Shown: positions 11,360 through 30,401, counted from the first letter of the stretch. The stretch is DNA of 32,000 nt from Sinorhizobium meliloti (GCF_017876815.1 NZ_JAGIOS010000002.1:780001-812000), one strand, 5' to 3'. The notes: generated from the letters alone by a model not told the origin. A program made the numbers and translations.

Positions 11360-12256
11360 ATGGTTCGAGCGCGCCGCGGTATCGGCCGATATTACGACGT
11401 CAATGGCTGGCTGTTCGTCGCCCCGGCGCTGGGGCTGATCACCCTTTTCATGGTCTATCCCATCGCGTGGTCGCTCTGGATGTCGTTCCAGTCCGGCCGC
11501 GGCATGACGCTGAAGTTCGCGGGCTTCGCAAACATCGTTCGGCTCTGGAATGATCCGGTCTTCATCAAGGCGCTCACCAACACGATGACCTATTTCGTCG
11601 TGCAGGTGCCGATCATGATCCTGCTCGCGCTGATCCTGGCGTCGCTCCTCAACAATCCCCGGCTCGTCGGCCGAGGGGTTTTCCGCACGGCGATCTTCCT
11701 GCCCTGCGTCAGTTCGCTGGTCGCCTATTCGGTGCTCTTCAAGGGCATGTTCGCAACCGACGGGATCGTCAATTCGACGCTCCAGGCGATCGGTCTCGCC
11801 GCCTCGCCCATTCCGTGGCTGACGCATCCCTTCTGGGCGAAGGTTCTCGTCATTCTTGCCATCACCTGGCGCTGGACCGGCTACAACATGATCTTCTATC
11901 TTGCGGCACTTCAGAACATCGACAAGTCAATCTACGAGGTGGCGCGCATCGACGGCGTTCCGGCCTGGGCGCGCTTCACCCACCTCACCATCCCTCTGCT
12001 GAAGCCGGTCATCCTCTTCACGACAGTCATTTCGACGATCGGCACGCTGCAGCTTTTCGACGAGGTCTATAACCTGACCGAGGGCAAGGGCGGCCCGTCC
12101 AATGCCACGCTCACCCTGTCGCTCTACATCTACAACCTGACCTTCCGCTTCATGCCGAACCTGGGTTATGCGGCGACGGTCTCCTATGTCATCGTCGTCC
12201 TCGTCGCGCTCCTCGCCTTCGTGCAGTTCTTCGCAGCAAGGGAGCGTGACCGATGA
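11360..12256 (+). CDS. lacF: Sugar ABC transporter permease (MalF/LacF-type), 298 aa
   Basis: I trimmed track ORF 11315..12256 to the ATG at 11360 (MVRARRGIGRYYDVNGWLFVAPALG), which is preceded by AGGAGGGG. The protein shows a multi-TM pattern and an EAA-loop region (YLAALQNIDKSIYEVARIDG). Confidence 0.85.
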   Translation: MVRARRGIGRYYDVNGWLFVAPALGLITLFMVYPIAWSLWMSFQSGRGMTLKFAGFANIVRLWNDPVFIKALTNTMTYFVVQVPIMILLALILASLLNNPRLVGRGVFRTAIFLPCVSSLVAYSVLFKGMFATDGIVNSTLQAIGLAASPIPWLTHPFWAKVLVILAITWRWTGYNMIFYLAALQNIDKSIYEVARIDGVPAWARFTHLTIPLLKPVILFTTVISTIGTLQLFDEVYNLTEGKGGPSNATLTLSLYIYNLTFRFMPNLGYAATVSYVIVVLVALLAFVQFFAARERDR

Positions 12257-13071
12257 ACGGATTTGGACGTTTCGCGGCGATGGCAGCCACCTATGGCTTC
12301 CTCGGCCTGATGGCCTTCCTCTCCGTCTTTCCGTTCATCTGGATGGTGCTCGGCGCAACCAATTCGTCGATCGACATCATCAAGGGCAAGCTCCTGCCGG
12401 GCGCAGCCTTTGCAACCAATGTCGCCAACTTCTTCACGCTGGTGAACGTGCCGCTCGTCTTCTGGAACTCGGCCAAGATCGCGATCGTTGCGACCGTGCT
12501 CACGCTCGCCGTCTCCTCGCTCGCCGGTTACGGTTTCGAGATGTTCCGCTCGCGAAGACGCGAGCGCGTCTACCGGGCGATGCTGCTGACCCTGATGATC
12601 CCCTTCGCCGCGCTGATGATCCCGCTCTTCGTCATGATGGGGAAGGCAGGTCTCATCAACACGCATCTCGCCGTCGTCCTGCCCTCGATCGGCTCCGCCT
12701 TCGTGATCTTCTATTTCCGGCAGAGCACCAAGGCCTTCCCGTCCGAGCTGCGCGACGCGGCCAAGGTCGACGGGCTCAAGGAATGGCAGATATTCCTATT
12801 CATCTACGTGCCGGTCGTGCGTTCGACCTATGCGGCCGCCTTCGTCATCGTCTTCATGACCGCATGGAACAACTATCTCTGGCCGCTGATCGTGCTCCAG
12901 ACCAATGAGACCAAGACGATCACGCTGGTCATCTCGTCGCTCGCCTCCGCCTACTACCCCGATTACGGCGTGGTCATGGTCGGGACGATTCTCGCGACAC
13001 TGCCGACGCTTGCCGTTTTCTTCTTCATGCAACGCCAGTTCGTCCAGGGCATGCTGGGCTCAGTCAAATAG
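12253..13071 (+). CDS. lacG: Sugar ABC transporter permease (MalG/LacG-type), 272 aa
   Basis: An ATGA overlap links it to the lacF stop. The EAA-type loop is FRQSTKAFPSELRDAAKVDG. The protein is hydrophobic throughout. Confidence 0.88.
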   Translation: MNGFGRFAAMAATYGFLGLMAFLSVFPFIWMVLGATNSSIDIIKGKLLPGAAFATNVANFFTLVNVPLVFWNSAKIAIVATVLTLAVSSLAGYGFEMFRSRRRERVYRAMLLTLMIPFAALMIPLFVMMGKAGLINTHLAVVLPSIGSAFVIFYFRQSTKAFPSELRDAAKVDGLKEWQIFLFIYVPVVRSTYAAAFVIVFMTAWNNYLWPLIVLQTNETKTITLVISSLASAYYPDYGVVMVGTILATLPTLAVFFFMQRQFVQGMLGSVK

Positions 13072-16472: not shown

Positions 16473-17249
16473 ATGCGTATTGGCTTCATCGGCACCGGCG
16501 CCATCACCGAAGCGATGGTGACGGGCATCGTCGGCTCCGGGCTCGACGTCGCCGGGATTCTCGTCTCCCCGCGCAACCGGGAGATTGCTGCCCGGCTTGC
16601 CGGCCGCTTCCCGCTCGTTCGGATCGTCAAGGACAATCAGCAAGCGGTGGACGCGGCCGACGTGCTGTTCCTCGCCGTGCGTCCTCAAATCGCCGAGGAC
16701 GTGATCCCCAAGCTCAAGTTCCGCAAGGGCCAGAAGGTCGTCAGCGTCATTGCCGCCACCGACCGTCCGACGCTCCTCGGCTGGATCGGCGAGGAGGTGG
16801 AGCTCACGCAGGCAATCCCCCTGCCCTTCGTCGCCGAGCGCGAGGGCGTGACGGCGATCTATCCGCCGAACCGCGCCGTTGCCGCGATCTTCGCGGCACT
16901 CGGAACAGCGGTCGAATGCGAAACCAGGGAGGAATACGATCTGCTTGCCGTCGGAAGCGCTCTGATGGCGACCTATCTCGGCATTCTCGACCGGACGACC
17001 GCCTGGTTCGCCGAGAAGGGTCTCCACCGCGACAAGGCACGCGCCTATATCGCGCCGCTCTTTGCCAGCCTCGCGCAGAGGGCGGTCAGGGACGAGGGGA
17101 CGCCGCTCGAAGAACTCGCCCGCGAATTTTCGACCAAGGGCGGATTGAACGAGCAGGTTCTGACGGATTTCGACCGCGGTGGCGGCCACCGGGCGCTGAC
17201 GGATGCGCTCGAACGCGTGCTGCTGCGGGTGCGCGGCGACGACCGGTAA
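16473..17249 (+). CDS. Pyrroline-5-carboxylate reductase-family NAD(P)-dependent oxidoreductase (ProC-like), 258 aa
   Basis: The N-terminal dinucleotide fold is MRIGFIGTGAITEAM, and the C-terminal dimerisation-domain motif is STKGGLNEQVL. AAGGGAG Shine-Dalgarno precedes the start. Confidence 0.7.
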   Translation: MRIGFIGTGAITEAMVTGIVGSGLDVAGILVSPRNREIAARLAGRFPLVRIVKDNQQAVDAADVLFLAVRPQIAEDVIPKLKFRKGQKVVSVIAATDRPTLLGWIGEEVELTQAIPLPFVAEREGVTAIYPPNRAVAAIFAALGTAVECETREEYDLLAVGSALMATYLGILDRTTAWFAEKGLHRDKARAYIAPLFASLAQRAVRDEGTPLEELAREFSTKGGLNEQVLTDFDRGGGHRALTDALERVLLRVRGDDR

Positions 17250-17255
17250 AGGTCT

Positions 17256-18161
17256 TCAAAGCTCGGTGCCGAGACCCGCATGGCGCCGAAAACGCCCGGC
17301 GGCGAAGTCCACGAAGGCGCGCACCCTTGCCGAGACCATGCGGCCTTCCGCATGCACGATGTGGATCGGCACCGGCTCGCGCTCGTAGTCGGCAAGAACG
17401 ACCTTGAGCCTGCCGGCACTCACATCGGGTGCCACCTGGTAGGACTGAAACCGGGACAATCCCCAGCCCGCCACAGCCGCGGCAAGGACCGCGTCATTGG
17501 TGTTGCAGATGAGACGAGGGCTGATCGGAACGCGGATATTGTTGTCGCGTCCGAAGAGCCATTCGGAGTGGCCGAAGAGGCCCTCGCGCCCGATGATCCG
17601 ATGACGGGCAAGCTCCTGCGGGCTGCCGGGATCGCCGAAGCGGGCGAAATAATCCGGCGAGCCGCAAAGCACCTGCCGGACCGAGCCGATCCGGCGCGCA
17701 ACGAGCCCGGAGGCCGGGAGCGAGGCAATGCGGATCGCCACATCCAGCCCTTCGTCGACCAGGTTGGTCACGCGGTCGACGAAGATGGTCTTTACCTGCA
17801 TAGCCGGATAGTGATCGAGGAAATCGAGGATGACGGGGAGCACGTGGATGCGCCCGAAGAGCGCGGGCGCCGTTACCGTGAGCAACCCCGCCGGAGCGGT
17901 GAAACTGCCAGCCGCATTGGCTTCCGCCTCGGCGATTTCCCCGAGGATACGCCGGCAATCGGCCACATAACCTTCGCCCGCCGCAGTCAGTTTCAACGAG
18001 CGCGTGGTGCGGACCAGAAGCCGTGTCCCGATCAGGTCCTCCAGCTTCGCCACCGCTCGGGTGACCGATGGCGGACTCATATGCAGCACCTTGGCGGCCG
18101 GCGCGAACCCGCCGCTTTCGACCACCTGCACGAAGACCCGCATCGCCTGCCAGCGATCCAT
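17256..18161 (-). CDS. LysR-family transcriptional regulator, 301 aa
   Basis: The N-terminal wHTH is MDRWQAMRVFVQVVESGGFAPAAKVLHMSPPSVTRAVAKLEDLIGTRLLVRTTR. It is divergent from a GST gene. Confidence 0.88.
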   Translation of the reverse strand: MDRWQAMRVFVQVVESGGFAPAAKVLHMSPPSVTRAVAKLEDLIGTRLLVRTTRSLKLTAAGEGYVADCRRILGEIAEAEANAAGSFTAPAGLLTVTAPALFGRIHVLPVILDFLDHYPAMQVKTIFVDRVTNLVDEGLDVAIRIASLPASGLVARRIGSVRQVLCGSPDYFARFGDPGSPQELARHRIIGREGLFGHSEWLFGRDNNIRVPISPRLICNTNDAVLAAAVAGWGLSRFQSYQVAPDVSAGRLKVVLADYEREPVPIHIVHAEGRMVSARVRAFVDFAAGRFRRHAGLGTEL

Positions 18162-18216
18162 CGATTACACCTCGATTATTGCACCAACTGAAATGGTCTA
18201 GTGTTTTCATCAGAGC

Positions 18217-18235
18217 TTATCAACTCCGCGGATAA
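18217..18235. promoter_or_regulatory. Candidate LysR box (ATC-N9-GAT type) in the LysR/GST divergent promoter region
   Basis: TTATC-N9-GATAA is a perfect 5-bp inverted repeat. It lies 42 bp upstream of the GST ATG and 56 bp upstream of the LysR ATG. Confidence 0.5.
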
Positions 18236-18276
18236 CAATCATCTTGAGGTCGTTCCATCGATTCAACGAGGCCGAC

Positions 18277-18888
18277 ATGAAGCTCTATCACCATCCCCTC
18301 TCCGGCCACGCGCACCGCGCCCGCCTGTTCCTCTCGCTGCTCGGTATCGAGCATGAGCTGGTGGTCGTCGATTTCGCCAGGAGAGAGCACAAGCAAGCGG
18401 ATTTCCTGAAGCTCAATTCCTTCGGTCAGGTTCCGGTGCTCGACGACGCCGGCACGATCATCTCGGATTCCAACGCCATTCTCGTCTATCTGGCAAAGAA
18501 GACCGGCCGCACGGACTGGCTGCCGGAAGACGCCGCCGGGGCGGCTGCCGTTCAGCGCTGGCTTTCGGTGGCTGCCGGCCAGATCGCCCATGGTCCGGCC
18601 CAGGCGCGGCTCATCAACGTGTTCAAGGCACCCTACCGACCGGAAGAGGTGATCCCCCGTTCGCATGCGATCCTGGCGCTGATCGAGCAGGAGCTGGAAG
18701 GCAGAGGCTGGATTGCCGCAGACCGGCCGACGATCGCCGATGTCGCGCTCTACAGCTACGTAGCGCGCGCCCCCGAAGGCGACGTCGATCTCCAGCCCTA
18801 TCCGGAGATCCGCGCCTGGCTCGCCCGCACCGAGGCATTGCCGGGATTCGTCGAGTTTGAAAAGACGCCGGTGGGGCTGGCGGCTTAG
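18277..18888 (+). CDS. Glutathione S-transferase, 203 aa
   Basis: I trimmed the TTG-initiated track ORF 18244..18888 to the ATG at 18277 ([24 protein letters not shown]...FGQVPVLDD...[11 protein letters not shown], a thioredoxin-like GST N-domain). Confidence 0.85.
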
Positions 18889-18901
18889 CGAGGCGTTATG
18901 A

Positions 18902-19136
18902 CGACGTCCGCTTGCGGGAAGCCATCTCGCACGGCACGTGCTTGAAGAGTATCGAAGGACTGCAACCGCCCTCCACCCTCATCCCTGTGCTTGTCACAGG
19001 GATCCAGCAGCGCCGCGTCTGCGGTGCGAGGAGTCCTTCAGGTCAAAGACTTGGCCTGGCTGGATTCCTGTGACAAGCACAGGAATGAGGGAGCTTGGGC
19101 AGGGGGCGGGTGTTCCCGCCGACGTCCGCTTGCGGG
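18902..19136. repeat. Composite intergenic repeat: a 17-bp perfect direct repeat flanking a pair of 33-nt inverted arms, each with its own hairpin
   Basis: The direct repeat is CGACGTCCGCTTGCGGG at 18902-18918 and 19120-19136. The left arm is CCCTCATCCCTGTGCTTGTCACAGGGATCCAGC (18976-19008). The right arm (19059-19091) is its reverse complement with 2 mismatches. Each arm contains a CCTGTG...CACAGG sub-palindrome. Confidence 0.8.
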
Positions 19137-20171: not shown

Positions 20172-20196
20172 GGAACCAACCTCCCTCGCCAAGGTT
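20172..20196 (+). promoter_or_regulatory. EcfG/RpoE2-type general stress promoter upstream of the catalase
   Basis: The motif is GGAAC (20172-20176) - N16 - GGTT (20193-20196). It lies 36 nt upstream of the catalase ATG, and the leader contains an AAGGAG Shine-Dalgarno. Confidence 0.6.
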
Positions 20197-25570: not shown

Positions 25571-25595
25571 GGAACTTTTGGCCAGGGGGCAGGTT
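25571..25595 (+). promoter_or_regulatory. EcfG/RpoE2-type promoter candidate upstream of the ZIP transporter
   Basis: The motif is GGAAC (25571-25575) - N16 - GGTT (25592-25595), the same architecture as upstream of the catalase. It predicts a leader of about 145 nt to the ATG at 25747. Confidence 0.5.
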
Positions 25596-25746: not shown

Positions 25747-26526
25747 ATGAATAATGATCTCCTGATCATCCTGGGAATTGCCGCGGCGGCGGCCGTAGCA
25801 TCGCCCCTAGGCGGCCTGGTGGCGATCTCGCTCAGGCCGTCCAGCCTCGTGCTCTCGATCGCCGTCGGCTTCGCGGCCGGCGTCCTCATGGGCACCTTCG
25901 CTTTCGAGATGATGCCCACCTCCATGGAACTTGCAGGTCTTCCGCTTGCCGTTGCCGGATTTCTGCTCGGCCTGGGACTCGTCTATATTCTCGACCTCTA
26001 CGTCAACCGCTGGAAAATGGCCGGACCGGAAGCGGATCAGAAGGCCGAGGTCGATCGCCTGCATCGGCGGCGCAGGCCGCGCGGGAGCAATGTCGCGGTG
26101 CTCGCCGGCGGCACGAGTGCGGAAGAGCTGATCGAAGGCATGACGATCGGTGTCGGCGCGACCTTCGAGCCTAAGGTGGCGCTGATCGTGGGTCTCGCGA
26201 TCTGCATCGACAATTTCAGCGAAGGAATGAGCATCGGCGAATTGACGCTCGACGAGGAGCGGAAGAACGCGAAGCGCAGGACACTCGGATGGACCTCCCT
26301 CATCGGACTCTCCCTTTTCGTTTCCGCCGTGGCAGGGTGGTTCCTCCTGAAAGGCCTGGCCCAGCCGGTCACCGGTTTTCTTTTCGCGACGGGAGCGGGC
26401 GGGATGTTCTACCTGACGATTACCGACCTCGTGCCGGAAGCGGAGTCGCACCAGTTCCAGCAATCCTCCGCGATCGCCAATGCCGCCGGCTTCCTGCTCG
26501 TCATGGTGCTTGCGCAGATGAGCTGA
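25747..26526 (+). CDS. ZIP-family divalent metal transporter (ZupT-like), 259 aa
   Basis: The protein has about 8 hydrophobic segments. ZIP-like paired motifs EELIEGMTIGVGA and IDNFSEGMSIGE sit on either side of a charged central loop (RLHRRRRPRGS). The Shine-Dalgarno is weak. Confidence 0.7.
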   Translation: MNNDLLIILGIAAAAAVASPLGGLVAISLRPSSLVLSIAVGFAAGVLMGTFAFEMMPTSMELAGLPLAVAGFLLGLGLVYILDLYVNRWKMAGPEADQKAEVDRLHRRRRPRGSNVAVLAGGTSAEELIEGMTIGVGATFEPKVALIVGLAICIDNFSEGMSIGELTLDEERKNAKRRTLGWTSLIGLSLFVSAVAGWFLLKGLAQPVTGFLFATGAGGMFYLTITDLVPEAESHQFQQSSAIANAAGFLLVMVLAQMS

Positions 26527-26557: not shown

Positions 26558-29101
26558 TCAGACGATCGCCCGGTCCCAGCCCCCATAATGTTCTTCGCTG
26601 CGCGTGCCGCGCGGAAGGCTGAGCGCGATCAATGCCAGGCCGATCGCGAGATTGGCGAAGGTGGCGACCGTGCTGCCGCCGGCAAGCAGGAAGGGCGAAG
26701 CCGCCACCCAGGCGCCGAGCAGCACATTCAGGAAACGCACCGGACGGACGACCTCCGCCATGGCGGTGACGGCAACCAGGATCACGACGCAGCCGAGAAT
26801 GTGGTCGCTGTGATAGAGCGGCGGGACGCTGCCGAAAACCATGGGCGTCGTCATCAGGACCGCGCCGAGCAGAGCGCTCGCGACCAGCGTCCAGGGGAAG
26901 TTGACGCCGCCGACGATGAATTCCTTCAGCAGCTCGGAGGCGGGCCGGTTGAGGTCGGGGGCCGGCGTCTGGTCCTCCGAAATGGCCGGGCCGCCCATCC
27001 AGAACGTCCGCCAGAAGGGCTCGCCCGCCTTTCTTACGCGCCAGAGATACTGGATGGTCGCGAGCACCTCGTCGATCGAATAGGGGATGAGCACGACGGT
27101 GACGGCCGCCTGGATGATGCAGAGCGTGCAGAGTGCGCCGATAAGCGGCGGCTGGATGATGATGAAGGAGACGCTGACGGCGCCGAGGGGCACGATCAGT
27201 AGGCCGAAGAGGAGCACCATCCAGGGCATGGTGCGCCAGCGGCGACTGTCTCCGATCGCGCCGGCCAGAAGGTCAAGCGCATAGGCGAAGGCGCCCAGGC
27301 CGGCATCGGCGATAGGAAAGCCCTTGGAAACCCAGGACGTCACGACCGCCTCGCTGCCGTTGCGGACGGGGGCCTCGCCCGGGCCGAAGAACGGGTCCCA
27401 GAGCCCGTCGACATGGCCCATCTGATAGGCGGCGAGATAGCGCGAGACGAAGAGGCCGACGAAGGCGAGCGCGACGATCGGCATGCGCTGGGTGAAGGAG
27501 GACGGCGAATAGCTCCAGCCGAGCGGCCGGTCGTCGTCGGCCGCGAGCGCCCGCAGCCTTATGCCGGGTGTCGGCGGAATCATAACCGCAAAAGCCACGA
27601 TCAGCATGCCGGCAAGCGTATCGACGGCGTAGGCCGCAGCACTCGTCGTCCAGAAGACAAGCGGGGCGAGCATGATCCAGACGCCGAGCGCTGCCGTGAT
27701 CCATTGCGCATGGGACCAGCGCCGGTACATGCCGAAAAGCGCGAATGCCGCAACGAGCAATCCGGACAGGATCTCGCTGATCCCGAGTCGGGCATTGCGT
27801 ATGGCGGGCTCCGCGATCTCGTGGCCGAGCGCCGGCGGCAGTGGCACGCCGACGGGGTCGAAAAGGCCGAGCGTCGCCGGCGAGGAGACGAGCCACAGGC
27901 CGAGAGCGACATTTGCCAGCGGCGCCCAGAGCGTGCGCAGCCGGTGTTCTTCCACGGCAACTTCGACTTCAGCGTCGCTGCGCTCCAGCGGCTCCGCCAG
28001 GCGTTTCTCCGCCTGCTCGATTTCCGGATCCGAGGCGGCGACCACGGAGGGCTCCAGCTTGTTCTTCGCGTACCAGGTGGTCGGGTCTTGCTTGAGCCGC
28101 CGGATCATTTCCGGCAACGTCGCAGCTAGGCTGTGTCTCGGCTCCCAGCCGAGCTTTTTGCGGGCACGGGAGATGTCGATCTCGTAATGATCGTCCGAGT
28201 TCTCGATCATCCACGGCTTAATCTCCGACTCCTCGTCGAGCACCTCGGTCTGCATCCATGCCCCCGGCTTGGCAAGGCTCTTGGGCAGGGCGAGCGTGCG
28301 CCAGTCCTCGCCGTGGATCAGCCGGCCGATACGCTTCTGCAAGTCGCCATAGGAGAGCGTTTCCTCCTCGCCGATCAGGAACACGCAATCGTCGGGCAAT
28401 TCGTTGCGGTGGCCGACGGCGCGCGCGAAAGCCTCGACCAGATCGTCCTTGTGCAGATAGGGCTGGCCCGCGTCCAGATCGCCGCTGAACAGATAGGCCG
28501 TCGGGAGCCGCTCGAAGATGCGGGCGATCTGCTGGGCGATGAAAGCGGCTCGGCAGTCCTCGTCATAGACGCCGGCGAGGCGAAGAGTCGCGGTCCTGAT
28601 CGCGCCGCGATGTTTGGCGATTACCGCCTCGGTCTCGGCCTTCGACTTGGGGTAGGCCCAGGCGGGGTCCAGCGGATCATCCTCGTTGATCCGCGCACCC
28701 TTGGCCGGACTGGGTGCCTGCACCAGCAGCGTGCTTGCATAGATGAACTGTTCGGTGGGAAGGCCCTGCAGCGCCTCCAGCAGCCGGCGCGTGCCCTCGA
28801 CATTGACGGCACCGTATTTGGGGTTGTCCTTGCCGGTGGTGTCGTAATAGGCGGCAAGATGAATGACGGAAGCAAGGCGCCCGCCGCTACGCTTACCCGC
28901 CGTCTCGATCGCCTCTCTCACGCTTTCGTCGGAGGTGATGTCGAGTTTGATCGTCTCTTCGGTCTCGGACTCGCCCTTCGGAGGGGACAGGTCGAGCCCG
29001 ATGACGCGATACCGGTCCCTCAGGCGATGCGCGATCGCCTGGCCCAGGAAACCGCTCGAGCCGGTAATGAGAACGGTCGGCTGATTTGCATCTTTCGGCA
29101 T
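26558..29101 (-). CDS. Fusion protein, 847 aa. It has an N-terminal extended-SDR (NAD-dependent epimerase/dehydratase-like) domain and a C-terminal 12-13 TM region with a VKOR-like CXXC core flanked by SPW-like repeat pairs.
   Basis: I trimmed track ORF 26558..29188 to the ATG at 29101 (MPKDANQPTVLITGSSGFLGQ, a Rossmann motif). The catalytic YxxxK is Y150-PKS-K154. An acidic linker spans aa 350-390. SPW-like helices include NVALGLWLVSSPATLG, ALGVWIMLAPLVFW and NVLLGAWVAASPFLLAG. The VKOR-like block is aa 540-675 (FVSRYLAAY...SKGFPIADAGLGAFAY...GALCTLCIIQ), with the CXXC codons at 27119-27130. Confidence 0.7.
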   Translation of the reverse strand: MPKDANQPTVLITGSSGFLGQAIAHRLRDRYRVIGLDLSPPKGESETEETIKLDITSDESVREAIETAGKRSGGRLASVIHLAAYYDTTGKDNPKYGAVNVEGTRRLLEALQGLPTEQFIYASTLLVQAPSPAKGARINEDDPLDPAWAYPKSKAETEAVIAKHRGAIRTATLRLAGVYDEDCRAAFIAQQIARIFERLPTAYLFSGDLDAGQPYLHKDDLVEAFARAVGHRNELPDDCVFLIGEEETLSYGDLQKRIGRLIHGEDWRTLALPKSLAKPGAWMQTEVLDEESEIKPWMIENSDDHYEIDISRARKKLGWEPRHSLAATLPEMIRRLKQDPTTWYAKNKLEPSVVAASDPEIEQAEKRLAEPLERSDAEVEVAVEEHRLRTLWAPLANVALGLWLVSSPATLGLFDPVGVPLPPALGHEIAEPAIRNARLGISEILSGLLVAAFALFGMYRRWSHAQWITAALGVWIMLAPLVFWTTSAAAYAVDTLAGMLIVAFAVMIPPTPGIRLRALAADDDRPLGWSYSPSSFTQRMPIVALAFVGLFVSRYLAAYQMGHVDGLWDPFFGPGEAPVRNGSEAVVTSWVSKGFPIADAGLGAFAYALDLLAGAIGDSRRWRTMPWMVLLFGLLIVPLGAVSVSFIIIQPPLIGALCTLCIIQAAVTVVLIPYSIDEVLATIQYLWRVRKAGEPFWRTFWMGGPAISEDQTPAPDLNRPASELLKEFIVGGVNFPWTLVASALLGAVLMTTPMVFGSVPPLYHSDHILGCVVILVAVTAMAEVVRPVRFLNVLLGAWVAASPFLLAGGSTVATFANLAIGLALIALSLPRGTRSEEHYGGWDRAIV

Positions 29102-29110
29102 GCCGAAGCA

Positions 29111-29135
29111 AACCGCGCTCCGGCAGGAAGGTTCC
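29111..29135 (-). promoter_or_regulatory. EcfG/RpoE2-type promoter candidate immediately upstream of the SDR-VKOR-like fusion gene. It predicts a leaderless or near-leaderless mRNA.
   Basis: The minus strand reads GGAAC (29135-29131) - N16 - GGTT (29114-29111), followed by 9 nt (TGCTTCGGC) and then the ATG at 29101. No convincing Shine-Dalgarno is present. Confidence 0.5.
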
Positions 29136-29156: not shown

Positions 29157-30401
29157 CTACGCCCCCGTCCGCGCCACGACGGGCACATAGTCTTCCAGCT
29201 CCGGCGCGGGGAAATGCAGCGTCGCGCCGATCTCGGCGGAGCGGTAGAGGCCCATCAGGATTTCGACGACCGCCAGGCCGTCCTCGAAGGTTTCGAGCGG
29301 CTTTATCCCCTTGCGGAAGCATTCGACCATGTGGCGGTTTTCGTCCGTATAGCCGTAGACGCCGGCCTCGTCCTCAAGCACCGGCATCAGGCCCTGCTCG
29401 GCATTCTGTTTTTCGACGAGGTCCTCGCCCTCGGTGCCCTGCACGGCCCGCGACAGGAATATCTTCAAGCCGGTGCCGAGCGAATTGTACTCCAGCGCAT
29501 ATTCGGGCCCGAGAAGCTCGAGCTGGATGCGCAGGCCGGCGCCGACATAGGCCCAGGAGGTCGTTGCCTCGATCATCAGTTCGTTGCCCTCCTCGTCCTC
29601 CAGCGCCACGGTGGCGCGGGCGAAATCCTCCGATGGGCGCCGGCGGTAGTCGACATCCTCACCGAAGCGGCGGCGCAGCTCATCGGCATAGCCCGCCCGC
29701 GTCCATTTGAGGTTCGCCACCGTGCCGTTCACCGACTTGACCTTCAGCGAATTGCGGGGGGCACCGGGCGCCGTGAGCAGATGGCGCGCCACCTCGACGC
29801 TGTGGCACATCATATCGGAAAGCACCCCACCGCCCTGCTTGTCGCCCTGCCAGAACCAGGGCTCGTGCGGACCGGCATGTTCTTCCGCGGCGCGTGCGAG
29901 ATAGGGCCGGCCGGTGGTCGAGGCGGCGCGCCGCCAGATGATCTCCTTGCCCCGCAGCACCGGTGTGCAGAAGACCTGGTTTTCGAGATAGCCATGGTTG
30001 AGACCGGCATCCTCGGCCAGGTGCAGCATCTCGCGTGCCTCCGCCACAGTGCGCGCAAGCGGCTTCTCGCAGGCGACCGCAAAGATCTTGCCGCGTCCCG
30101 CCTTGATCTCCCGGTGGAGCGTCCGCATGACGTCGAGCCGGGTGTAGTTCGGCGACAGAATCCAGACCGCATCGACGTCGCCGGCGGACAGGAGCGATTC
30201 GAGACTCTCATGCGCGCGGCACTCGCCGAGATCGAGCGCCTCGACTTCGCTCACGAAGCGCGCGCGGTTTTCGGGATTGCGGCTGTAGACGCCGGTCACC
30301 TCGACATTGCGTACCCCGATGAGCGATTTGAGGTGGAAATGCGCGATAAAGCCGGTGCCGACGAAGCCGACGCGCAAGGTCTGTTTCGGTAATGTGGTCA
30401 T
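29157..30401 (-). CDS. Gfo/Idh/MocA-family NAD(P)-dependent oxidoreductase, 414 aa
   Basis: The N-terminal Rossmann motif is LRVGFVGTGFIAHFH, and the EKP motif is VACEKPLARTVAEA. A strong GGGGAGGAAAGA Shine-Dalgarno precedes the start. Confidence 0.85.
   Translation of the reverse strand: MTTLPKQTLRVGFVGTGFIAHFHLKSLIGVRNVEVTGVYSRNPENRARFVSEVEALDLGECRAHESLESLLSAGDVDAVWILSPNYTRLDVMRTLHREIKAGRGKIFAVACEKPLARTVAEAREMLHLAEDAGLNHGYLENQVFCTPVLRGKEIIWRRAASTTGRPYLARAAEEHAGPHEPWFWQGDKQGGGVLSDMMCHSVEVARHLLTAPGAPRNSLKVKSVNGTVANLKWTRAGYADELRRRFGEDVDYRRRPSEDFARATVALEDEEGNELMIEATTSWAYVGAGLRIQLELLGPEYALEYNSLGTGLKIFLSRAVQGTEGEDLVEKQNAEQGLMPVLEDEAGVYGYTDENRHMVECFRKGIKPLETFEDGLAVVEILMGLYRSAEIGATLHFPAPELEDYVPVVARTGA

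Follow-up and report, generated by a model that had tools for sequence, protein, structure and literature searches.

A VKOR-like membrane module without relay cysteines is coupled to short-chain dehydrogenases/reductases: SMb20012 of Sinorhizobium meliloti and its relatives

The stretch analysed here, a window of 32,000 nucleotides (nt) from Sinorhizobium meliloti (GCF_017876815.1, NZ_JAGIOS010000002.1:780001-812000), belongs to the chromid pSymB, with 100% identity to strain SM11 and 99.5% to Rm1021, and the gene of concern is the one numbered SMb20012 in Rm1021. Its product joins an extended short-chain dehydrogenase/reductase (SDR) to a membrane part in which two SPW repeat domains flank a core resembling vitamin K epoxide reductase (VKOR). 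What is chiefly new is the coupling itself: a VKOR-like module that has kept its CXXC motif and has no relay cysteines is tied to SDR enzymes, both in SMb20012 and elsewhere in its family. We would read SMb20012, tentatively and with a little less than even confidence, as a conserved membrane redox system of two parts that are here fused. The gene and the parts of its product, in amino acids (aa) and window coordinates, are as follows.

26558..29101, minus strand: coding sequence (CDS) of the SMb20012 orthologue, 847 aa plus stop, SDR-SPW-VKOR-like-SPW (list of open reading frames (ORFs), orthologue lengths, GenBank annotation).
28067..29101, minus strand: predicted cytoplasmic extended SDR domain, aa 1-345, with TGSSGFLG, D37, S123/T124 and Y150-xxx-K154 (Pfam, Foldseek, residue conservation).
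27929..28066, minus strand: acidic linker with two short helices, aa 346-391 (sequence, AlphaFold2 (AF2)).
27584..27928, minus strand: SPW repeat domain 1, four transmembrane (TM) helices, aa 392-506 (Pfam SPW, hydropathy, AF2).
27485..27541, minus strand: family-invariant segment before the VKOR core, predicted cytoplasmic, aa 521-539 (family alignment).
27074..27481, minus strand: VKOR-like four-helix core, aa 541-676 (Pfam VKOR, Foldseek).
27308..27421, minus strand: cysteine-free, predicted periplasmic core loop, aa 561-598, motif WDPFF...TS..S..FP (alignment of 425 relatives).
27119..27130, minus strand: intramembrane CXXC, C658-T-L-C661, at the predicted periplasmic end of the last core helix (sequence, family alignment).
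26615..26893, minus strand: SPW repeat domain 2, four TM helices, aa 737-829 (Pfam SPW, AF2).

The name was read off the Affymetrix probe order (SMb20011, c-SMb20012 'hypothetical protein', c-SMb20013 'putative oxidoreductase', c-SMb20014 regulator), the probe for SMb20012 being c15139887_at; the Rm1021 counterpart occupies pSymB 16480..19023, the CDS is 100% identical to that on SM11 pSymB, and GenBank calls the protein an NAD-dependent epimerase/dehydratase family protein. The 847-aa model of the initial annotation stands. The 120 closest homologues are 838-912 aa long, nearly all of them 843-850, with starts equivalent to the ATG at 29101, and the orthologue is annotated in CP140921 as a CDS of 2544 nt; since homologues and GenBank both contradict a start at 29188, the gene is placed at 26558..29101. 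The longer, 876-aa reading from the ATG at 29188, which would add 29 codons (29157-29188, minus strand) and overlap the 3′ end of the upstream Gfo/Idh/MocA gene, is ruled out by the orthologue lengths, by the lack of conservation upstream and by the GenBank annotation.

At the amino terminus, the residues indicate a catalytically intact and active SDR. Pfam Epimerase (PF01370) matches aa 10-244 with an E-value of 2.6e-25, the Rossmann motif TGSSGFLG and an acidic D37 at the end of β2 are present, and the YPKSK motif (Y150, K154) lies where the initial annotation had placed it. Foldseek found the two-domain extended SDR fold, the matches to the SDR model being GalE-like extended SDRs with a target TM-score (TMt) of 0.75-0.80 over about 345 columns at about 20% identity. 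Among fused and split relatives (the latter described below), TGxxGxxG is found in 80 of 80 and D/E37 in 80 of 80, S123 in 78 of 81, and Y150 and K154 each in 81 of 81; it is because the cofactor and catalytic residues are essentially invariant across these 81 relatives that we read the domain as an enzyme at work. It would probably prefer NAD(H), since an acidic residue closes β2, as the general rule for SDRs has it. Against the NCBIfam equivalog models every score fell far under its cut-off, that of a weak match to HpnA included. C183 (in AGVYDEDC) was considered as a catalytic thiol and set aside: it is invariant in the close orthologues but is a cysteine in just 41 of the 81 diverse relatives. 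The linker that follows is modelled by AF2 with low confidence at aa 352-356 and with helices at 358-369 and 376-389.

The membrane part comprises 12 TM helices by both hydropathy and AF2, four in each of SPW1, core and SPW2. The domains named in the initial annotation were all confirmed by Pfam. SPW (PF03779), scanned separately, scores 45.3 bits at aa 392-506 and 47.1 bits at aa 737-829 with a cut-off of 31.5, and VKOR (PF07884) scores 77.7 bits at aa 541-676 in the full protein and 83 bits in the sub-sequence with a cut-off of 27.5, the core covering positions 2-134 of the 134 in the profile. The "two SPW-like helix pairs" of that annotation need amending to this extent: SPW sequence does stand before and after the core, but each SPW domain has four helices, which AF2 places at 392-410, 432-456, 465-482 and 488-507 in SPW1 and at 737-756, 762-779, 783-805 and 811-828 in SPW2. 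The models of the full-length protein and of the membrane part have a predicted local distance difference test (pLDDT) of 89.2 and 85.9, respectively, and the membrane part has a predicted TM-score (pTM) of 0.82. A Pfam scan found no thioredoxin-like domain in the protein.

The VKOR link of the membrane part comes from Pfam and fold comparison only. Sequence searches of the membrane part against the Protein Data Bank (PDB), with the single sequence and with a 49-sequence profile, returned nothing at E<=1. With the membrane model, the only credible Foldseek matches in the PDB were human VKOR (6wv3, 6wv6, 6wv7) and the Takifugu VKOR-like protein, at probabilities of 0.6-0.85 (0.82-0.85 for 6wv3/6wv7) over about 155-170 columns with 15-22% identity; since their E-values are about 1, these are supportive rather than strong. 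No PDB structure matched the SPW domains. Aligned by hhalign with human VKORC1 (a weak match), the family profile spans TM2-TM4 and places the CXXC on C132/C135, with Y139 of VKORC1 opposite a conserved Ala.

In canonical VKORs the CXXC reacts with quinone, and a pair of loop cysteines (C43/C51 in human VKORC1) takes electrons from a thioredoxin-like partner. The SMb20012 loop, aa 560-598, contains no cysteine at all, and the same is true of the family. Searched exhaustively with HMMER, aa 380-847 gave 1707 cluster representatives at E<=1e-3, of which 239 reached E<=1e-30; 425 sequences no shorter than 400 aa were aligned to a hidden Markov model (HMM) of the family. Full-length representatives are mostly stand-alone proteins, 410-510 aa long and likewise ordered SPW-VKOR-SPW, and they come from Chlamydiota, Gemmatimonadota, Chloroflexota and others. 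The CXXC has both its cysteines in 412 of the 425 relatives, and loop cysteines in the VKOR core occur in 0 of 425, so that the retention of the one and the loss of the other, noticed initially in the single protein, hold across the family. The motif that stands family-wide in place of the loop cysteines is QLG[HY]..WDPFF..GT..V[IL]TS..S..FP, in which W568, D569, P570, F572, S589, S592 and P596 are near-invariant. S589 is found in 423 of 425 and S592 is nearly invariant, and AF2 puts both within short loop helices. VKORs have a conserved loop Ser/Thr, S57 in human VKORC1; the hhalign alignment covers TM2-TM4, and hence gives no residue-level pairing of S589 or S592 with it. Just ahead of the core, P526, G528, W529, P533, S534, Q538 and R539 are invariant or nearly so (411-423 of 425). 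The invariant polar residues, which include Q538, R539, R554, Q560, D569, S589, D599, R621, Q650, D677, E678, E783, R786 and R789, sit on both faces of the membrane. The SPW + VKOR + epimerase association has a single passing mention, which gives it as a Pfam architecture (bioRxiv 10.1101/809483). A published VKOR phylogeny deliberately discarded sequences without the conserved residues (PMC4555120), which is why the SPW-VKOR-SPW branch is missing from it.

The coupling to SDRs takes several forms. The N-terminal extended-SDR fusion of SMb20012 occurs at 80 genome loci from Alpha-, Beta- and Gammaproteobacteria, Planctomycetota and Acidobacteriota. It is also present at all 70 of the 70 metagenome loci that have a full-length SDR match, with membrane parts 43-99% identical; the metagenome scan covered the best 80 loci ranked against the query and gave fused relatives only, so it speaks to the depth of the fusion and not to the frequency of adjacency. 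By this distribution the fusion is evidently widespread and old. A classical SDR of the adh_short type is fused at the C terminus in some cluster representatives (P0129, P0389, P0392) and at the N terminus in others (P0390, P0391, P0393, P0394, P0409). In the split form, a separate extended-SDR gene runs into the start of a stand-alone module, with an overlap of 11 nt at one locus (L086) and of 4 nt at another (L092), and the encoded SDRs are 48% and 41% identical, respectively, to the SDR domain of SMb20012 over about 345 aa, family-specific motifs included. A classical SDR gene lies 44 nt downstream of the module at L087 and another lies two genes downstream at L089. Given at least three independent types of fusion, along with adjacent or overlapping orthologous SDR genes, the genomic pattern marks the SDR as a real and dedicated functional partner of the membrane module. 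Moreover, since extended and classical SDRs appear to be interchangeable in this role, the common denominator would be NAD(P)H-dependent carbonyl or quinone chemistry, not the recognition of nucleotide sugars.

Where the two partners stand relative to the membrane bears directly on how they could work together. Hydropathy shows 12 peaks, with about 22 Arg+Lys in the predicted cytoplasmic segments and about 4 in the periplasmic ones. From this positive-inside count the predicted topology is N-in, with the VKOR core in its canonical orientation, which brings its CXXC and the loop without cysteines to the periplasmic face; an N-in start followed by 12 TM helices would leave both termini in the cytoplasm. 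The SDR must be cytoplasmic as well, because it has no signal peptide and requires NAD(H). This makes it unlikely that the SDR passes a hydride directly to a quinone at the CXXC site. The initial annotation had proposed that the SDR, rather than a periplasmic thioredoxin partner, exchanges electrons with a quinone or with the CXXC; the partnership is borne out by the fusions and adjacent genes, and the direct exchange is disfavoured by the placement on opposite faces. A mobile quinone or lipid substrate would be the likelier link. The SDR would reduce (or oxidise) a membrane-soluble carbonyl substrate with NAD(H) at the cytoplasmic face, the likeliest substrate being a quinone or an oxidised quinone or lipid derivative. 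The same lipophilic molecule would then be bound by the VKOR-like core and would react through the CXXC at the outer face, such that a mobile lipid cofactor, and not a relay of protein cysteines, would join the cytoplasmic NAD(H) pool to thiol or quinone chemistry facing the periplasm. As a whole, this mechanism of a shared lipid cofactor moving between SDR and VKOR-like core is our tentative preference, to which we would give slightly under an even chance. A broader claim, that SPW-VKOR-SPW proteins with a dedicated SDR are an unrecognised class of VKOR-family machines with the cytoplasmic NAD(H) pool as redox partner and a quinone, bound or mobile, carrying reducing equivalents between the SDR and the outward CXXC, we regard as rather unlikely in that full form. 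If true, it would mean an NADH-driven, thioredoxin-independent control of periplasmic thiol and quinone (or oxidised-lipid) chemistry during stress.

A number of observations weigh against the shared-cofactor mechanism and the stress role attached to it. The membrane separates the SDR from the CXXC, and the step that couples them is purely one that we infer. The full-length AF2 model has a pTM of 0.64, and the interface of SDR and membrane part and the arrangement of the domains are uncertain to that degree. Many of the stand-alone modules lack an SDR gene next to them. In 13 of the 425 members the CXXC is short of one cysteine or both, with the rest of the module kept (P0134, P0161, P0177, P0209, P0342, P0358, P0360, P0361, P0461 and others, one group having GAWATLALAT), and since P0134 is an SDR-fused cluster, the losses extend to the fused form; it follows that the cysteines are not indispensable for every member. 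The copper-gene settings and heavy-metal domains found with some modules are not explained by a pure quinone model. Literature searches found no experimental characterisation of any member of the SDR/SPW-VKOR-SPW family, as the initial annotation had also said. The induction of SMb20012 through the stress regulator RpoE2 is modest, 1.6-fold, and the gene is not among the 202 genes induced at least 2-fold on rpoE2 overexpression (Schlueter 2013, PMC3616915).

Of the other explanations, the one nearest to the shared-cofactor mechanism is a reductive pathway, in which the SDR and NADH reduce a bound quinone, the quinol reduces the CXXC (VKOR run in reverse) and the resulting dithiol reduces periplasmic targets, such as mis-oxidised or copper-damaged cysteines or proteins of the TlpA/Sco type, as a thioredoxin-independent analogue of DsbD/CcdA/ScsB. 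A cytoplasmic NAD(H) enzyme in the place of a periplasmic thioredoxin-like partner fits such a pathway, as does the family-wide lack of loop cysteines, and so does the control of SMb20012 by a stress regulon beside katC. Stand-alone members also adjoin genes for periplasmic thiol and copper chemistry: L084 and L085 are set among Redoxin/AhpC-TSA, SCO1/SenC and multicopper oxidase genes, and L086 is beside a Cu-ATPase gene. The difficulty is thermodynamic, in that the reduction of a disulfide by ubiquinol, the quinone type used by rhizobia, is uphill by established redox potentials; moreover, no conserved thioredoxin-like or other periplasmic partner gene was found beside the orthologue at the 80 genome loci, and the 425 relatives showed no conserved ligands for a cofactor within the membrane, such as paired His residues. 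Both the pathway and its suggested targets are, in our estimate, unlikely. The opposite direction of flow is a somewhat more remote prospect. Here the core would be a thiol oxidase in its own right, like DsbB or VKOR, oxidising its substrate at the CXXC and passing electrons to quinone, with the SDR separate or regulatory, for example in sensing NADH/NAD+. The strong VKOR profile match and the conserved CXXC speak for it, and human VKOR with mutated loop cysteines is reportedly still active with small-molecule dithiols. In two related Chlamydiales genomes the module is about 3 kb from DsbA-like and DsbB genes; the same proximity cuts the other way, since the module there coexists with a DsbB where one is visible. 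The shuttle cysteines through which canonical VKORs reach protein substrates, and to which DsbB has an analogous relay, are missing in 425 of 425, and the intact catalytic residues of the SDR partners, together with the repeated independent fusions, favour a catalytic over a regulatory partner.

Metal handling, with the CXXC and nearby polar residues binding or reducing copper or another soft metal at the periplasmic face, takes its appeal from HMBD heavy-metal-binding domains (PF19335) at the cytoplasmic N terminus, just before the first TM helix, of some members (P0125, P0354, P0364, P0410, P0418, P0431, P0482, P0496, P0497), from the copper-oxidase, SCO1 and Cu-ATPase surroundings of L084-L086, and from a ZIP transporter gene with its own RpoE2-type motif as the conserved convergent neighbour in Sinorhizobium. 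No more than a few per cent of members have these HMBD domains, most loci lack the metal context, no SDR enzymes are known as metal reductases, and the VKOR profile similarity spans the whole core; we consider the explanation quite improbable. Least probable of all, in our judgement, is that SMb20012 is an ordinary epimerase or dehydratase of envelope polysaccharide synthesis, a membrane-anchored enzyme acting on sugar nucleotides or lipid-linked sugars, with the 12-TM part as anchor or channel and a structural CXXC. Its GenBank name would suit that, its best SDR matches in sequence and fold are UDP-glucose 4-epimerases and their relatives, and there is the weak HpnA match; the NCBIfam scores are all far under cut-off, the identity to solved epimerases is only about 20%, no conserved polysaccharide genes are nearby, and the classical adh_short partner of other lineages has no nucleotide-sugar-binding domain. 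Nor does an anchor call for dozens of invariant residues and a CXXC conserved at 97%. Several modules are near lipid-modifying genes (desaturase, CMAS, LGT, acyltransferase), and it is on account of the CXXC losses, the HMBD domains and the copper, lipid-gene and GH15 settings (the last described below) that we keep reductive thiol repair, metal handling and lipid chemistry alive as readings next to the shared-cofactor mechanism.

Set against known systems, the module is closest to the bacterial VKORs that replace DsbB, such as the Synechococcus VKOR-Trx fusion (PDB 3KP9) and the Mycobacterium tuberculosis VKOR. It shares with them the four-helix core, matched by PF07884 end to end, the CXXC, carried by the last core helix close to the outer face, and the predicted N-in topology of the core; it differs in having no loop cysteine pair and no thioredoxin-like domain, in the four-helix SPW domains on both sides of the core and in having a cytoplasmic NAD(H) SDR as partner. 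The likeness to human VKORC1 and the Takifugu VKOR-like protein (PDB 6WV3, 6WV7, 6WVI, 6WV8) consists of the modest fold matches (E about 1) and the weak alignment of CXXC on CXXC. With SPW repeat proteins it has in common two full-length SPW domains above the gathering threshold. To our knowledge, no function is known for any SPW protein. The conceptual parallel for the shared-cofactor mechanism is the vitamin K cycle, in which VKOR and the NAD(P)H quinone reductases NQO1 and FSP1 act on one lipid cofactor; SMb20012, in contrast, would hold both activities on one polypeptide at opposite membrane faces, and its NAD(H) enzyme is an SDR and not, like NQO1 and FSP1, a flavoprotein. DsbD, CcdA and ScsB, which pair thioredoxin with TM cysteines, have no relation in sequence or fold to SMb20012 with its SDR and VKOR-like core, and are alike only under the reductive pathway, in bringing cytoplasmic reducing power to periplasmic thiols and in the link of some neighbourhoods to copper and oxidative stress.

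Two quinone-linked membrane enzymes are known to form disulfide bonds, VKOR and DsbB, and what defines their mechanism is a relay of cysteines leading to a partner with the thioredoxin fold. What is described here is a family of thousands of sequences from many phyla in which the quinone-side CXXC is kept, the relay cysteines are gone and the tie is to NAD(H)-dependent SDR enzymes. Its chemistry, once worked out, would widen the repertoire of the VKOR fold and give SPW domains a first function, and in rhizobia it would account for a conserved general-stress-response gene beside katC on pSymB. SMb20012 is well suited to such work, being a single gene with clear active-site residues in a genetically amenable organism.

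The regulation of SMb20012 was considered from its promoter sequence and from published expression data. The pattern GGAAC-N16/17-SGTT has 4 matches in the window, with 0.58 expected by chance:

29111..29135, minus strand: EcfG/RpoE2-type promoter motif of SMb20012, GGAACCT-N13-CGGTTT, ending 9 nt before the ATG (sequence).
20172-20196, plus strand: RpoE2-dependent promoter of katC (SMb20007), GGAACCAACCTCCCTCGCCAAGGTT (known promoter, published transcription start site (TSS)).
25571-25595, plus strand: RpoE2-type motif GGAACTTTTGGCCAGGGGGCAGGTT, about 150 nt upstream of the ZIP transporter gene SMb20011 (25747-26526) (pattern scan).
12464-12489, plus strand: match inside the long ORFs 12168-12908 and 12253-13071, probably due to chance (pattern scan).

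Ahead of the SMb20012 ATG the sequence reads GGAACCT-N13-CGGTTT-GCTTCGGC-ATG, with TGCTTCGGC as the 9 nt between GGTT and ATG and no Shine-Dalgarno-like purine run between the motif and the start codon, just as initially annotated; the motif is identical in Rm1021. It resembles the katC promoter in its GGAAC -35 box, 13-nt inner spacer and xGGTTT -10 box. The katC TSS is the 8th nt after the -10 box, and in other RpoE2 promoters it is the 8th or 9th (PMC3616915 Table S19). Among the TSS entries of PMC3616915 covered here, none lies at positions 19022-19026, where that of SMb20012 would fall. In SMb20012 the ATG begins, with its A, on the 9th nt past the 6-nt -10 box, one nt beyond the katC spacing, which makes a leaderless mRNA geometrically plausible and sets the promoter apart from other RpoE2 promoters, since a -10 box ending 9 nt before the ATG would give an mRNA with no leader. 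The strongest evidence for the putative promoter is phylogenetic footprinting. At about 24 of the 80 genome loci the motif lies upstream of the orthologue, namely at all Sinorhizobium, Ensifer and Pararhizobium loci and four others, and it is absent in Mesorhizobium and most other genera. In most species that have it, it ends 28-31 nt before the ATG, with a normal leader and a weak AAGG; only in S. meliloti and S. medicae (L003, L058) have about 20 nt of leader been lost, as judged against L004-L012, L051, L056, L059, L066 and L075, and that loss is why the motif ends 9 nt before the ATG. The mRNA is thus probably leaderless in these two species.

In a re-analysis of rpoE2 overexpression, SMb20012, whose baseline was already rather high, was significantly induced, by 1.63-fold (log2 0.70, adjusted P 0.0136; Lang et al. 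2018, PMC6180224 Data Set S1). The stress-type promoter proposed in the initial annotation is thus supported by conservation of the motif across Sinorhizobium, Ensifer and Pararhizobium and by induction, and we conclude that SMb20012 belongs, as a modest member, to the general stress regulon of RpoE2 (EcfG); its induction is far below that of katC, about 19-fold (log2 4.2). Literature searches found no published link between VKOR and the general stress response. In the same data the intergenic probe between SMb20010 and SMb20011 was up 1.7-fold (adjusted P 1.3e-4), and the ATP-dependent DNA ligase gene SMb20008, downstream of katC, was also RpoE2-induced (PMC6180224). With katC and SMb20008 both RpoE2-induced, the window carries a small general-stress gene cluster.

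Beyond the promoter, the surroundings of the gene vary. De novo clustering of the neighbours across the 80 genome loci found none common to more than 14 loci. The ZIP metal-transporter gene SMb20011, convergent with SMb20012, is the conserved neighbour in Sinorhizobium, and a GGAAC...GTT motif is found upstream of it in 5 of the 6 Sinorhizobium loci that keep that neighbour. Only in the S. meliloti clade does the gene have its Gfo/Idh/MocA, LacI, hydrolase and LysR neighbours, and a functional link to the upstream Gfo/Idh/MocA oxidoreductase, to which the initial annotation had drawn attention, was dropped on that ground. One of the 80 loci (L043; JBNOAI010000004.1, 373 kb), titled Leptospira interrogans, carries a 69%-identical orthologue of the alphaproteobacterial type and is probably a contaminant contig. 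On each of two contigs from metagenomes, unrelated to one another, the 3′ end of a stand-alone module gene shares 4 nt with a GH15/TREH_N (glucoamylase/trehalase-like) gene (L089, 5389-7203; L090, 6629-8434), an arrangement that suggests translational coupling.

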